Below are positions 3,187 through 62,826 of a stretch of 64,000 nucleotides of DNA, piece by piece. The DNA lies in the NCBI GenBank assembly GCA_951406725.2, contig OX597817.1:7564001-7628000 (forward strand). Direction: 5' to 3'. Origin of the DNA: Octopus vulgaris. Lineage: Eukaryota. The position numbers and the translations under genes were made by a program. Every line of letters starts with the position of its first letter. The stretch's first letter is position 1. The notes under the pieces are model-generated. The model ran no database searches and was not told the origin of the DNA. It was given only the letters and a program-made list of their open reading frames with translations.

Positions 3187-3651
3187 AATTTATTAAATAA
3201 GGGCAAAAGAAAAATTCTAATGCCAGATACGCCGAAACAAAGAATTGTCGGTAACCATTAAATTTATGCGTCTCGAAACAAGGAAGAAGCAAGCACCAAG
3301 TCACGAGCAGACTTAAGTACCTCAAATATATCCAAATGAGTATGAGTAAGTATTTCATTTATATCTCGCGTTTTTGCCGCTGAAGAGGGGAAAATTTCTT
3401 GTGAATTAACCCCGAAATTGGACCAATGCGGTAATAACGAATTTTTTAGAGATTTCTATTGGTTTGTTTCGAGACGCATAAATTTAATGGTCATCGACAA
3501 TTTTTTTGTTTCGGCGTATCTGGCATTAGATTTTTTTCTTTTGCCCTTATCTTATAAATTATGTATAAATTTTACCTTTAAAGGCATTTTTTGATATGCT
3601 GGCCATTGATAAAAAATTTTTCTCGACAAAAATGTTATCGTATATCAATTA
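3187..3651 (+). mobile_element. Fold-back Penelope-like/retrozyme-like insert between (TA)n tracts
   Basis: Inverted arms 3187-3281 / 3464-3560, about 90 nt tail 3561-3650, hammerhead fold in the spacer, (TA)n on both sides. Confidence 0.7.
3369..3439 (+). ncRNA. Type I hammerhead ribozyme motif, G at cleavage position 17 (probably inactive)
   Basis: cgtttttgccg CTGAAGA gggg..cccc GAAA ttg gac caa T G cggtaataacg: stems I, II and III all pair. Confidence 0.7.
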
Positions 3652-6479
3652 TATATATATATATATATATATATATATATGAATAAATATATAACAAGGA
3701 ATAGAATTACGTGATCAACTTCAGTTGCTTCTCTTATGAAATGCAGTGCACGAACAGTTGAATGCTTGTACATCACTTTATAGCTTCTAAAAAGCTGTAT
3801 TCTGCAGAGCATATGTATATTGAGTTCTTCTACAGATTAATAATATCGCAATGCCTAAGCGAAATCTATGTACCTTTCTGCCTACCTATCTATCTATCTG
3901 TCTGTCTGTCTACATATGCATACACAAAAAAGAGTTTTGCACGTCGTTTCGTCATACGATTATTGAATACGTGATTTTCAGTGGAAAACAATCTATGATC
4001 CTGTGCAAGAAAATATTATATTGTAACCTTATACTGGAGTAAAATATGAAGCCATAAATTTATCATAAATAAACTATGCTGTACGAGTACTGTATTTCAA
4101 AGAAGAGAACATCAGCATCTTTGAAATGTTGGATATAGCGCTCAAATTGTTGCGACTTTTGTTTTACTGAGAAAGTACACATTATCACATTATATACCAC
4201 TTTACAGCAATTCTAAATAAAAGAGAACAAAATTCGGCCTGCCAACATTTGTTCAAGTCCTTTCCCATAAATGTTTGAAAATACTCTCTTCATATATTAT
4301 AGCTGACGGATGACTTCGTCTTTCAAGTGCTAATCTGTAAAAAAACACAGTGATTGTAAATTCGAGCGGTTATAACATAAAACGAATTTCTCTTCCCCCT
4401 ATTGACTGAGCAGTTAACTGAGGGACTGGGACTGACAAAGCGAAACAGGGGTCTGGATTCTATCACTCTGTATTCTGTGCTTACACATGTATCAGATGCT
4501 ACGCAATTGTAGCACAAAAGCGTATCGATATTTATTTACATACATTTATGCTGAAAATAACAATATGGCTGAAATTACAAATGTTTAGATACAAACCATC
4601 GGGTGTGTATCAGAAAATTATATGTATGTTAATGTGTAAGTATGCATATATATATATATATATATATATATATATATATATATATATATATATATATATA
4701 TATATATATATATCTGTGTGTGTCTGTATTTATAGTTTTTATTATTTATATTATAGATTGGTTTTAATGCATACGAATTTTATATCTACAAACACTACAC
4801 ATTCACACAAACGTATATATATAAAGACACTTATTGACATCCACGCTTATACAGAAACAAACGCTCACACACATCTATATCTTTGTATATATGATATATA
4901 TGTTTGTGTGTGTGTATATATATATATATATATATATATATATATATATATATATATATATACATATATATGTGTAAATATCTACATCTATATATATATA
5001 TATATATATATATATATATATATACACATATATATGTGTATGTATGTATGTCTATACATATATATATATATATATATATATATATATATATATATATATA
5101 TATATATATATATATACATATACATACATATAATCGATACTGGCTTAAATGAGTATGCTATCTAAATAAACATTGTTCTGTAATTGGGAGCATCAAGTTC
5201 AGACGTTAAAGATTAAAAAAGTTAATACACATGATTATCTGAAGGATTTTCATACTATTTAAACTATACAAACACCTTCCCGCACACACATGAACATACA
5301 AGCAAATGTAAATAGGCACACACATACTCTCATACGCACAAGTACACACAAACACACCCATAAAGATAGGCAGATATGGTGATTTTTTTATCTGTTTGTA
5401 CAAAATTTCTTCAGATTGCACGAGAAATCTTTGTTTGTTAATCCCCACTAATGATCAGATTTTTATCTAATGTTCTCAAAATAGACAATATTTTAAAAAA
5501 ACAACCTTGATTGTGTCTTCAGTTAGCTGGCCTGCTCAGACGGGAAACCAAGGGTTGCAGAGTGTGATATGTGATATGTGATCCACAACCGGAAAAGCAA
5601 GATCATATGGACTATTAAATAAGAATCAACAAAAGTCTAATATATACATTTACACACATGTTGTTATCGTGTCATTATCCGTTATTGTTGTTCAGTCAAA
5701 AGTCAACTGAACTATCAGGTCCATGATCGAAGACATTCCAGCTGAGGCCACTCAGTCTTATTTTTTAAGGGAGTAGGATTATTTGCAGGTTGCTATTTCT
5801 AGCAGAATAAGCGACCACACAGAGACCTTTGTTTGTTGGATCGTTTCGTCATTATTTAGTAAATGGCGCTGAAATGTGACAACCAACTGTGATGACAATG
5901 AGATATATTTAGTCGCTCATTAACATCTGTTTGCATAGAATTCTGCATATCAGTAGGACGAACACACTTTTTATTAATTAGTTAGCAGCGATTATTTCGT
6001 CTCTAAGCCGGCATAGTCGGGTAAGACCGATATATTTGGTGTTCAAGAAGGGGCACATTATTAAAGGCCGGTAGAAAATATAAATGTTAAAGCATGGCTT
6101 AGCCTTACTCGCAGGCAAGTATGATTCCCTAACTTGTACTACGTCTCACCAGTTGTTTTAAGGGCCGATGCATAGATATAGACACCTTTTCTGTTCACCC
6201 GCACTTGACTCAGTGCAACACAGTGGATGTGTTAGGGTTGTAGTTAAACTAGGTCGGTACGAATTTCCAGTTGGGTAGACTTAAGCAACATAAAATGATG
6301 TGCTTAGCCCAAGGACACGACGCGTCTCTCAACCCCAAAATAATTGTGAGCCCAACGGCCTAATAGGTAGCCCACGCGCCTTCATTTAAGGATGATAGCA
6401 TTAAATAAGCCATCTTTTCTTTATGGATAATCTAGAATTGACCATCAAGTACAAACATCAATTCTGTTATTTAGTTCAA

Positions 6480-6664
6480 ATATTGGTTTCAAAATTTGAA
6501 ACAAGGCCAGTAAGTTCGGGGGAGGCGTTCAGCCGATTATATCGATCCGTGTTCAACTGGTATTTCTTTTATCGATCCCGAAAGGACGAAAGTCGACCTT
6601 GGTGATGGACGAAATGCCTCTAAACATTTTACCTGCGTGCTAACGATTCAGCCAGCTCGCCGCA
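6480..6664 (-). mobile_element. Diverged SINE family B copy
   Basis: tttatcgatcccgaaaggacgaaagtcgacct..gctaacgattcagccagctcgccgc is the reverse complement of family B. Confidence 0.7.
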
Positions 6665-7412
6665 CTATTTAGTTCAAATAGTTAAAATATTTTTGGAAAA
6701 TATCGGAAAGCAATTAAGAATTGTAAAATGCAGAGATTTCTTATTGAATTCCGGTCCCAACCTCGGAAGGATGGAATGCCAAGTCAATGTTGGGAGGCTA
6801 GAGAATTATAAAGTAAATTGACCATAACTGAATCGTTCAAGGTTTATCGTTCACTACTCTATTGAATCTAGCATTCCTCGACTCACATCAGTTTAATATT
6901 GAAAAGAAGAACAATGAAAAGTAATGAGACATAAATACCAGGCAAATGAAAAGATAAAATATGTAGAAACATATTTCAATAAGGGACAACAGTAAATGCA
7001 TAAAGGGAAATTAACACTAATATATTTACAGAAGGAATACTTCTAATAACTATAATTAAATGACAAAAATAATGATCTTGTCGTTAACATACTGACCATA
7101 ACTTTTTCGAGGCCCAGTGGAATATTACTGAATTATAAAGAAAAGATCACTTAAGATAAGAACACCAGAAACTGATTTCATTGTTTTTACTCATTCACCA
7201 ACCATATGTATACTTATTTGTATACTTGTGTGTGAAAATGCATGTTTGTGGATGCATATATACATACATTCATACATATGTACACACACACACACACACA
7301 CACACACACATATGTATATATATATATATATATATATATATATATATATATATAACAAAATGAGATTAAAAAAATACAAGGTTATGCAAGATCTCAGAAC
7401 ATTTATAAAGAG

Positions 7413-61017: not shown

Positions 61018-62087
61018 ACATATACAGACAGACAGATAGACAGACAGATAGATAGATAGATAGATAGATAGATAGATAGATAGATAGATAGATAGATAGA
61101 TAGATAGATCTGCTGGGTTCTGTGTATACGTATGCTTAAATATAAATACATACACATAAACATATATACACATCACCAGCAAATGTAGGCACAAATCGTC
61201 GCATTCAAATGCGTATTCCTAAGGAAATCATCTTAATATGGCATTTATTTTTCAATGAGAGCCCGAGCAAAAACTGCATCTCTGTAACCCGTAAATTGAA
61301 GAATATATTCCGGATACTGCTTTAATATATTCCCAAAATGCTTTTCAATGCAATTTTACGATACAAAATAAAGGTGTGTGTGTGCATATAAGTGTATGTG
61401 TGTGTGTATTTATGCATGTATGTATGATGTATATATATATGTATGTATGTATGTATGTATGTATGTATGTATGTATGTATATACATACATACATACATAT
61501 ATATGTGTACACGCTGCACATATATGTGTATGTGTGTATTCACGTACATATTTGTGCGAAGCAGACGAGTGATACTTCACCGTGTGGGACTTGTAAATTT
61601 CTTCGCTTCATTTTTTTACCTATAACATTCAGTTCCTGTATGTATGTATATATATATACATATCTGTGTGTTTACGTGCGTCTGTGTGTGCGTGTGTTTG
61701 TATGTATGCATACATACACACATACACACACACACACACACATAAGTATGATTGCATGCCTATAGCTGTGGTTCTAGATTTTAGAATACTACAATATGAC
61801 GTTCTTGGTAAACATGAAATTTTACTTTAAGTGTGCAAAACAAGCGAACTAATTATACTATTAGCTTTTTAGACTCTCCGCGAGGACAAATATGCACTGA
61901 CATGACTATCGCATGCACTGTTTTGCAAAACGAAAAAAAAAAAAAAAAATAGACAGAACAGTTTTGTGATGTGTTGAAATATATACAGTATATGCAGCTA
62001 GAGCGATTAATTGCTTCGTGAACTGAAGATAGATCTTCTTTACCTGACGTTGGTCCATCTTCTTTCTGCCCACAAAAGAACATAGTA

Positions 62088-62280
62088 AAATAAATGCGGC
62101 CTTTTAAAGCCTAGCCAGGTTCATGGGCCCCGTTTCCGGGTTTCAATGGTGTATGTGTTCCCCAGCTGAACGGGACGCCAGTCCATCGCAGCGTAACTCA
62201 TTTCTGTCAGCTGAGTGGAGTGAAGCAACGTGAAATGAAGTGTTTTGCTTAAGAACAAAACGCGTCACCCGGTTCAGGAG
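62088..62280 (-). mobile_element. SINE-like repeat family D; central domain shared with family E
   Basis: Homologous to 60868; gcaacgtgaaatgaagtgttttgcttaagaaca resembles the family E central domain. Confidence 0.8.
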
Positions 62281-62471
62281 TCATCTGTCTTCGTCTTTTT
62301 TCTTTTTCTTTTTTGTAAATTCTCACTATATATATATATATATTTATATATATATACGACGGGCTTCTTTCAGTTTCTTTCTACCAAATCCACTCACCCG
62401 AGGCTATAGATACACACGCACACACACATACTCACATATATATATATATATATATATATATATATATATAA

Positions 62472-62826
62472 TAGAAATATTAAAATTACTAAGTCTCTCT
62501 AAAAGAGAACAGCGGCAGCGTTCCCGGAAAATAATAGTTATCGCCATACTAATATGGCATTCTTATAAAACCATCGAACAGAGATTGTCGGAAGCGACAC
62601 CTACTGGCTGGCTACGCTGCATTGAAAAGGGGCAATACCCCGAAACGTGTCTGTAGCTGCCGGTCAAGTAGTGTGGAGCGACTGACCTCCCTTGTTCGAA
62701 GGTTATATGGAAACAGTTTGTGTATCAAATAGCTAACTTAAGGCGATGGCCTCATGGAGCTAATAAGCGGACAGCTTTATTCTTATTTTTATAAGAATGC
62801 CATATTAGTATGGCGATAACTATTAT
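62472..62826. mobile_element. Fold-back insert in (TA)n: about 60 nt tail, perfect 40 bp inverted arms, hammerhead on +
   Basis: ataatagttatcgccatactaatatggcattcttataaaa (62531-62570) / exact reverse complement (62787-62826). Confidence 0.85.
62616..62657 (+). ncRNA. Type I hammerhead, compensated U3:A8 core, GUC cleavage triplet
   Basis: gctgca TTGAAAA gggg caata cccc GAAA cgtg T C tgtagc. Confidence 0.7.

Follow-up and report, generated by a model that had tools for sequence, protein, structure and literature searches.

Short hammerhead-bearing inserts in an Octopus vulgaris genome window and their likeness to Penelope-type insertions

We analyzed a 64,000-nt stretch of the 2.8-Gb Octopus vulgaris genome (contig OX597817.1, positions 7564001-7628000; hereafter the window) that is rich in microsatellites and holds no long non-repetitive open reading frame (ORF) of note. 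Scattered through it are short inserts, very probably copies of many hammerhead ribozyme families with two fixed 3′ ends, written into (TA)n or AT-rich DNA by the reverse transcriptase (RT)-endonuclease of a Neptune-type Penelope element. An initial annotation had placed inserts at 13 positions and read them as many families of microsatellite-targeted elements of the Penelope and retrozyme kind. A short insert does begin at each of the 13 positions, and every one is related to sequences at other genomic sites; together the inserts represent about 12 high-copy families with type I hammerheads (families are named here after the window insert). The many-families reading is supported: the genome holds just such microsatellite-biased, hammerhead-bearing elements, and descriptor matches clustered over all loci formed 24 clusters present at two or more loci, one of which is the window counted twice.

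First-look genome searches returned 3867 candidates for the 16624 family, 2598 for 53704, 2429 for 3187, 2397 for 7354, 541 for 32950, 473 for 32818 and 334 for 28894; these counts are lower bounds, with 40 candidates scored per family. Blind samples, comprising 120 stretches of 10 kb (1.2 Mb) placed at round coordinates rather than drawn at random, contain 120 insertions by a strict count or 160 by a loose one, in 66 of the 120 stretches and covering ~2% of bases; some search queries derived from these same stretches. Extrapolating this density of at least one insertion per 10 kb suggests a genome total of at least 280,000 insertions, with ~2% of the genome being ribozyme-bearing retroelement sequence missed by Rfam. 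The window is denser than the one insert per 5-6 kb first proposed: four further pieces of the same system, at 10040, 32650, 33205 and 62282, bring the count to 17, or one per 3.8 kb.

Insertion ends, targets and a proposed route

All eight families tested for it have two discrete 3′ ends, which we call A and B. The A-to-B distance is 45 nt in 16624, 50 in 53704, 57 in 32818, 66 in 10850, 67 in 28894, 81 in 3187, ~105 in 7354 and ~115 in 32950. From six families (16624, 3187, 53704, 28894, 32818 and 10850) we collected 100 inverted insertions and classed both ends in 86, of which 82 combine A with B, two A with A and two B with B. In the three families whose search query was not itself an A+B copy, 26 of 28 inversions show this pairing (p = 3e-6 against 50%). 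Within the window, the arm and inverted-arm layout described for seven inserts was recovered by self-BLAST in exactly seven (3187, 16624, 28894, 30571, 32818, 41709 and 62472), and 10850 and 32950 share it with non-overlapping arms.

The description of these inserts as fold-back elements fits their layout but not their origin. Arm junctions differ from copy to copy, so the fold-back is made anew at each insertion and is not a property of the element. Arms beginning at the ribozyme cleavage site are rare (2 of 266); 197 span it, and 5′ ends show no peak there. A general rule that joins the arms at a palindrome lying upstream of the ribozyme does not hold: perfect fold-backs account for only 3 of 30 core pairs in 28894 and 1 of 6 in 10850. 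Separately, seven of nine listed inverted pairs of the 32818 family lie 19-21 nt apart, judged from coordinates only, and one locus of that family (L350) folds back perfectly at a palindrome of four bases close to the 5′ edge of the unit, hinting that the two complementary DNA (cDNA) ends anneal there.

Microsatellite targeting proved to be a strong bias and not a rule. (TA)n adjoins 164 of 267 A/B ends, or 35-97% by family (17/47, 33/42, 16/40, 58/60, 20/57 and 20/21), compared with 1.4-4.1% of blind positions and with 28/231 and 10/253 ends of families resembling short interspersed nuclear elements (SINEs), which served as controls. Similarly, a microsatellite bounds both sides of eight window inserts (3187, 7354, 7723, 10850, 28894, 30571, 32950 and 62472) but only one side of the other five (16624, 32818, 41709, 53345 and 53704). 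For target duplications we considered 166 insertions and set aside 136 with repetitive flanks; 17 of the 30 with unique flanks have duplications of 9-14 bp, against 62 of 2133 controls.

Penelope-type insertion products are recognized by a truncated, inverted copy that has a tail on one side and by a (TA)n/AT-rich bias with target duplication where visible, and the inserts show both features. A Penelope protein nicks and extends both strands, starting at two internal sites that bound the tail on uncleaved RNA (PMC11167929), and Penelope insertions show an inverted copy, a tail and a (TA)n bias (PMC8557442); the two-end anatomy is explained by this biochemistry because it reveals two internal start sites of reverse transcription. 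Neptune-clade insertions (PMC8557442, PMC11167929) resemble ours in the 5′-truncated inverted copy, one-sided tail, (TA)n/AT-rich bias, uncleaved template and hammerhead upstream of two internal 3′ ends. They differ in that the window copies have no ORF, and in that we count near-strict A+B arm pairing whereas no strand difference in start site was reported in vitro (PMC11167929). We propose that a Penelope protein would nick both DNA strands 9-14 bp apart and prime reverse transcription within an RNA that is still uncleaved, from two positions lying downstream of the ribozyme; one strand would probably start at A and the other at B. Two cDNAs joined head to head would then yield an arm, an inverted arm and a one-sided tail, and one cDNA alone would yield a single arm, with the non-coding RNAs presumably mobilized in trans. 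Each insertion that duplicates its target would also make (TA)n arrays longer.

Several observations weigh against this interpretation or its ribozyme component. Fourteen inverted insertions have one or both ends at neither site and are excluded from the 86; one of the 17 duplications (locus L108) may be the element's own end; and the tails here measure 45-115 nt, compared with 30-40 nt in published Neptune-clade insertions. Contig comparison recovered no empty site for 32650-33500, which bears on whether (TA)n predates insertion, and within the ~2 Mb examined none of the window families could be followed into coding sequence. Among the hammerhead matches described below, 7 of the 13 canonical ones in the blind samples come from one array, the descriptor itself requires paired stems, and the stem covariation looked for within the 32818 family did not exceed that of shuffles. 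Finally, much of the system was foreshadowed by Cervera & de la Pena 2014 (PMC4209133), where solo and opposite-strand motifs 100-700 bp apart are already described.

Hammerhead cores and their variants

Type I hammerhead features (core positions 3-9, GAAA, UH and stems I-III in order) are present in family tallies and folds and are enriched over shuffles. In the window, a strict descriptor gave 3 matches against a mean of 0.13 and a maximum of 2 in 200 block shuffles, so the matches surpass what shuffled sequence yields, a comparison that the initial annotation had proposed. We repeated the test on the blind samples (1.2 Mb), leaving the 3-8 pair unconstrained and taking eight shuffles as the null. 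C3-G8 gave 13 matches at 6 loci (0.2 in shuffles), U3-A8 8 matches at 6 loci (0.5), G3-C8 one (0.0) and A3-U8 one (0.4), compared with 4 for all non-Watson-Crick pairs together (2.4); C3-G8 with a changed position 6 gave 6 (0.1). Rfam performed poorly on this system. None of 10 family loci contained a ribozyme at the gathering score, and no such ribozyme appears among the 150 listed of 411 weak matches in the window, where matches were swamped by microsatellite-driven microRNA hits; repeat-finder output was swamped likewise.

Most window copies carry a whole or partial hammerhead, as proposed, and the inserts are mostly dissimilar in sequence, apart from 53704 and 62472 (75% identity). The core is complete in only 4 of 13 (10850, 16624, 28894 twice, and 62472). 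Position 17 is G in the 3187 and 7354 copies and A in their families; the hammerhead is altered or decayed in 7723, 32950, 41709, 53345 and 53704; 30571 retains only the 3′ half; and the 32818 copy has none, unlike its family.

Across genomic copies, five of nine families tallied or clustered have a canonical core, one with a C4 subfamily, and four have variants: G3-C8 in 32818, U3-A8 in 53704, U6 in 7723 and C13 in 41709. The 32818 family carries G3-C8 in 39 of 45 arms at 35 loci. A 22-mer spanning this core has 6,004 exact genome matches and its C3-G8 counterpart none. In the family fold, stem I measures 7 bp, stem II measures 5 bp and begins with a G-C pair, and stem III is palindromic; the stems pair in 93% of cells compared with 31-51% when slid. 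The 7723 family motif has 16,562 genome matches; among the first 100 listed, position 6 is U in 96 and A in 2, C3 is kept in 99 and G8 in 96, and position 7 takes all four bases. U3-A8 is found in 39 of 39 in the 53704 family, and C13 in 5 of 5 arms of the 41709 group. Another family, at loci L041, L065 and L091, has C6 in 8 of 8 motifs, the same change as in a phage A6C variant reported to prefer manganese.

Natural U3-A8 and A6C cores are already published, and an engineered C3G/G8C hammerhead, the same swapped tertiary pair as in the 32818 family, is reported to recover cleavage in part (PMC11167929, PMC8495972, PMC3884650); here the swap is natural, fixed in a high-copy family and part of a predicted ribozyme. 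In the excerpts compared we found G3-C8 only as the engineered partial rescue; variant catalogues such as Lunse 2017, and supplements, may list further natural cores. The excerpts retrieved for octopus and hammerhead contained nothing on this system. The novelty of a natural G3-C8 core is accordingly uncertain.

The G3-C8 ribozyme is predicted still to cut RNA. Alternatively, mobilization could proceed as described while the G3-C8, U6 and C13 cores are dead relics carried by successful master copies. The ribozyme is dispensable for Penelope insertion in vitro (PMC11167929), changes at position 6 lower hammerhead activity, thousands of copies can stem from one master copy, and C13 is uniform in the 41709 group, all of which would suit relics. 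Against this, a G3-C8 core requires both bases to change so that the pair is exactly re-formed, and stems I-III are preserved; in the U6 family the free position 7 varies to all four bases while C3 and G8 hold. Moreover, when the 3-8 pair was unconstrained, 15 clusters were present at three or more loci: 10 have C-G, 3 have U-A, 1 has G-C and 1 is mixed, and we judge the mixed cluster to be a chance match. Because the 3-8 pair thus changes only between Watson-Crick forms, the core has likely been kept by selection, and we consider the relic explanation unlikely. Activity of the G3-C8 core would mean that ribozyme chemistry is selected in living Penelope-type elements although it can be spared in vitro.

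Templates and candidate coding partners

By template, the families divide into a class of circularly permuted monomers and a class of short units whose 5′ edge is fixed. The first comprises 16624 (357 nt), 53704/62472 (361 nt) and 3187 (465 nt), which are non-coding and form tandems. Copies read through past B into their own monomer start at 7 of 29, 8 of 36 and 11 of 33 B ends in 16624, 53704 and 3187, respectively; because the 3′ end runs straight into the monomer start, there is no room for an ORF. The monomers fold as circles better than shuffles do (z -4.2 to -5.7, 40 shuffles), and judged by sequence and folds they fit non-LTR (non-long-terminal-repeat) retrozymes, whose published range of 150-450 bp with one type I hammerhead and tandem or permuted copies they match, 465 nt being slightly above it. 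These RNAs would likely be circles or multimers cut by the hammerhead. One blind sample (L186:2900-4780) holds five tandem 359-nt hammerhead units related to 16624 and ending at (TA)n, with two further units on the other strand (about 2300-2700 and a reverse-strand partner).

The second class has short units of 150-210 nt, with the 5′ edge a little way upstream of the ribozyme. Using a query that has no ribozyme, we found that 45 of 66 arms of the 32818 family start no more than ~25 nt ahead of the core; the sequence beyond the reference start varies among copies. Read-through is absent from the 86 B ends of 28894, 32818 and 10850, and these families show no tandem or permuted copies. Such templates would likely be run-off from the 5′ pseudo-LTR of a parent RNA.

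Penelope coding sequence was not found in the window, as first claimed, and intact coding elements exist elsewhere in the genome. Searching the window by tblastn with an intact Penelope protein of the same genome gave no match at E<1e-5, and no window insert contains an ORF with RT and GIY-YIG domains; the inserts behave as Penelope products and are not themselves autonomous. A genome profile search for GIY-YIG gave 148 matches among 150 scored, many in 781-aa open frames that encode RT, a CX4CX2C linker and GIY-YIG, the Neptune/Nematis layout (PMC8557442). The clade motif is present in P0001 and in a second family at 46% identity, and motif and layout jointly assign these intact elements, from sequence, to the Neptune/Nematis clade. 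Their pseudo-LTR carries a U3-A8 hammerhead motif, and among the ends of their copies 19 fall at +103/+106 and 7 at +146, counted from the core; most adjoin (TA)n, and A+B inversions occur. The second family has the same end pattern. No window family is linked to coding sequence in the ~2 Mb examined, and the partner enzyme is inferred from this shared anatomy. Two apparent junctions of 7354 with coding sequence (L252 and L072) proved to be separate neighboring insertions. A further idea, that U3-A8 cores avoid A17, failed on the autonomous family, where 9 of 16 motifs have A17. A young autonomous family (L246-L250), with proteins 95-99% identical and short repeats in its 3′ region, also has a second, upstream open frame of 250-480 codons that overlaps the 781-aa frame and has no convincing Pfam match.

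We also considered whether the inserts are nothing but 5′-truncated debris of autonomous Penelope elements, with no independent non-coding element. The autonomous elements here do leave equally short A/B products; the lack of copies past B in 28894, 32818 and 10850 fits a 5′ pseudo-LTR plus the start of the body; and solo and opposite-strand minimal hammerheads of Schistosoma were read as such debris (PMC4209133). For the short class this account may hold, and there it merges with our preferred one. As an explanation of all inserts it is improbable, as the 3187, 16624 and 53704 families have tandems, circular folds and a 3′ end that continues into the monomer start.

Mobilization by a long interspersed nuclear element (LINE) such as RTE, Dong-R4 or CR1, with an incidental likeness to Penelope, is very improbable. 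Dong elements target microsatellites, and LINE RTs are far commoner in this genome, with 56,077 candidates in an RVT_1 search, which does not separate out Penelope elements as the GIY-YIG search does. RTE and Dong-R4 are, moreover, listed as recently active in Octopus vulgaris (PMC13282606). Yet the templates lack a poly(A) or simple-repeat 3′ tail, and the inserts agree with the Penelope control of the same genome in their two fixed internal ends and in having inverted arms that overlap. We give almost no weight to fold-back DNA transposons inserted at TA, akin to miniature inverted-repeat transposable elements, with hammerheads as passengers or chance: TA flanks and inverted arms fit, but the arms are unequal, junctions vary per copy and many arms are single, leaving no symmetric terminal repeats or constant structure, the duplications are 9-14 bp and not TA, and the hammerhead motifs far exceed shuffles.

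The system as such is of a known kind, described for other animals; its less expected content, new at the level of variants, is the two families with G3-C8 and U6 cores, together with retrozyme-type monomers that bear a Penelope footprint. Metazoan non-LTR retrozymes (PMC7229834; bioRxiv 10.64898/2026.07.22.740005) resemble our three monomer families in being non-coding, in having one type I hammerhead, low G+C content and tandems or partial tandems, and in folding into self-paired circles. They differ in that the octopus copies are mostly dispersed monomers with a Penelope-type inversion, tail and 9-14 bp duplication, that one family has a U3-A8 core, and that circles are here a prediction from folds. 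Penelope elements have been put forward as a strong candidate partner of retrozymes (PMC7229834), and Li et al. 2026 (bioRxiv 10.64898/2026.07.22.740005) back this with co-occurrence and pseudo-LTR phylogeny, leaving the mechanism as future work. Within the retrozyme excerpts compared we found no junction-level Penelope footprint, and the text of Li et al. 2026 considered here does not contain 'tail', 'TPRT' (target-primed reverse transcription) or 'junction'. The minimal hammerheads of Penelope pseudo-LTRs (PMC4209133) share with the octopus motifs a very small palindromic stem III, a base left unpaired ahead of stem II, the U3-A8 variant and the presence of many families per genome, with solo and opposite-strand pairs; G3-C8 and U6 cores fixed in families of thousands of copies were not found in that source's excerpts, and the octopus density is far above its few thousand motifs per genome.

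Both the role of the hammerhead for Penelope elements and the enzyme mobilizing animal retrozymes are left open in this literature, and the octopus genome offers test material: high-copy families whose cores vary naturally, non-coding monomers on which the priming sites are mapped, and intact ORFs of young candidate partners. Tentatively, and a little short of an even chance, we suggest that a natural G3-C8 hammerhead not reported before, active to this day and fixed in a family of thousands of copies, exists here alongside U3-A8 and U6 families, and that retrozyme circles bear a two-site Penelope priming footprint. If so, the junctions themselves would prove that circular ribozyme RNAs are copied into the genome by Penelope enzymes, here as hundreds of thousands of insertions.

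Layout of the window

Four of the window inserts are retrozyme-type. Insert 3187 (3187..3649, plus strand), from the 465-nt permuted monomer, has an inverted arm at 3187-3281 (A end), a main arm at 3336-3649 (B end, 81-nt tail) and a C3-G8, G17 hammerhead at 3380-3428. In 16624 (16624..17184, plus; 357-nt permuted monomer), an inverted arm at 16624-16899 (A end) is followed by the main arm at 16898-17151 and a 33-nt read-through (17152-17184) into the monomer start; its intact hammerhead lies at 16903-16935 and a decayed copy at 16790-16822 (minus). Insert 53704 (53704..53969, minus; 361-nt permuted monomer) is a single arm to site B with a U3-A8 hammerhead at 53922-53952, G6 in the window copy. 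Its subfamily member 62472 (62472..62823, plus) has a tail arm at 62477-62557 (minus, B end), an arm at 62571-62823 (A end) and an intact U3-A8 hammerhead at 62622-62651.

Single arms are also seen in 7354 (7354..7643, minus), which runs to site A with a hammerhead at 7417-7455 that has a palindromic stem III and G17 (family tail ~105 nt); in 7723 (7724..7865, minus), a U6-core copy whose minimal hammerhead at 7815-7843 has a decayed cleavage triplet; and in 53345 (53345..53520, minus), an old copy with a decayed hammerhead at 53401-53497 and a core kept in a relative. Insert 10850 (10850..11001, plus) joins a tail arm at 10850-10919 (minus strand, B end) to an arm at 10918-11001 (A end), with a C4 hammerhead at 10935-10964. 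In 28894 (28894..29103, minus), the main arm at 28894-29026, with a ~67-nt tail (B end), faces an inverted arm at 29033-29103 (A end), and both hammerheads are intact (28985-29023, minus; 29040-29078, plus). Insert 30571 (30571..30781, minus) has arm, inverted arm and tail, with the hammerhead 3′ half at 30717-30728, and belongs to a family with a long stem II. Insert 41709 (41709..42143, minus) has arms at 41709-41786 and 42026-42103 plus a tail, and a hammerhead-like C13 sequence at 41787-41819. Two of the extra pieces stand elsewhere: 10040 (10040..10131, plus), a hammerhead 3′ half related to the 30571 group, and 62282 (62282..62357, plus), a 3′ end of the U6-core family adjoining (TA)n.

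Between 32610 and 33380, four different hammerhead families lie end to end around short (TA)n runs, a packing that suggests repeated insertion into duplicated targets. They are the 3′ half of another hammerhead element (32650..32809, minus; motif at 32779-32793), abutting insert 32818 (32810..32931, plus), a truncated G3-C8 family copy with an inverted arm at 32810-32851 (A end), an arm at 32845-32931 (B end, 57-nt tail) and no ribozyme left; then 32950 (32950..33185, minus), an arm to site A with a decayed, long-stem-II hammerhead at 33022-33102 and a short inverted B-end arm at its right; and 33205 (33205..33376, minus), the 3′ part of another hammerhead family (33353-33365).

Two further inverted repeats stand apart. 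The 580-nt repeat at 11245-11823 has arms 79% identical with microsatellites within both, a few partial relatives and no clear hammerhead, and may represent an old insertion of this type. The old repeat at 20354-20946 (70% arms), without a relative among the loci compared, is possibly a decayed DNA transposon. The two adjacent frames at 47552-48280 (127 and 98 aa) resemble a broken LINE RT, and the 118-aa frame at 2569-2925 resembles the C-terminal end of a CR1/L2-type LINE protein. A SINE-like high-copy family, often in tandem, occupies 899-1213, 15333-15922, 19073-19311, 21895-22658, 23640-24056, 27931-28148 and 36044-36291; other SINE-like families lie at 12145-12517, 39242-39607, 55220-55635 and 58633-59046, and at 29703-29894, 30897-31051 and 40828-41003.

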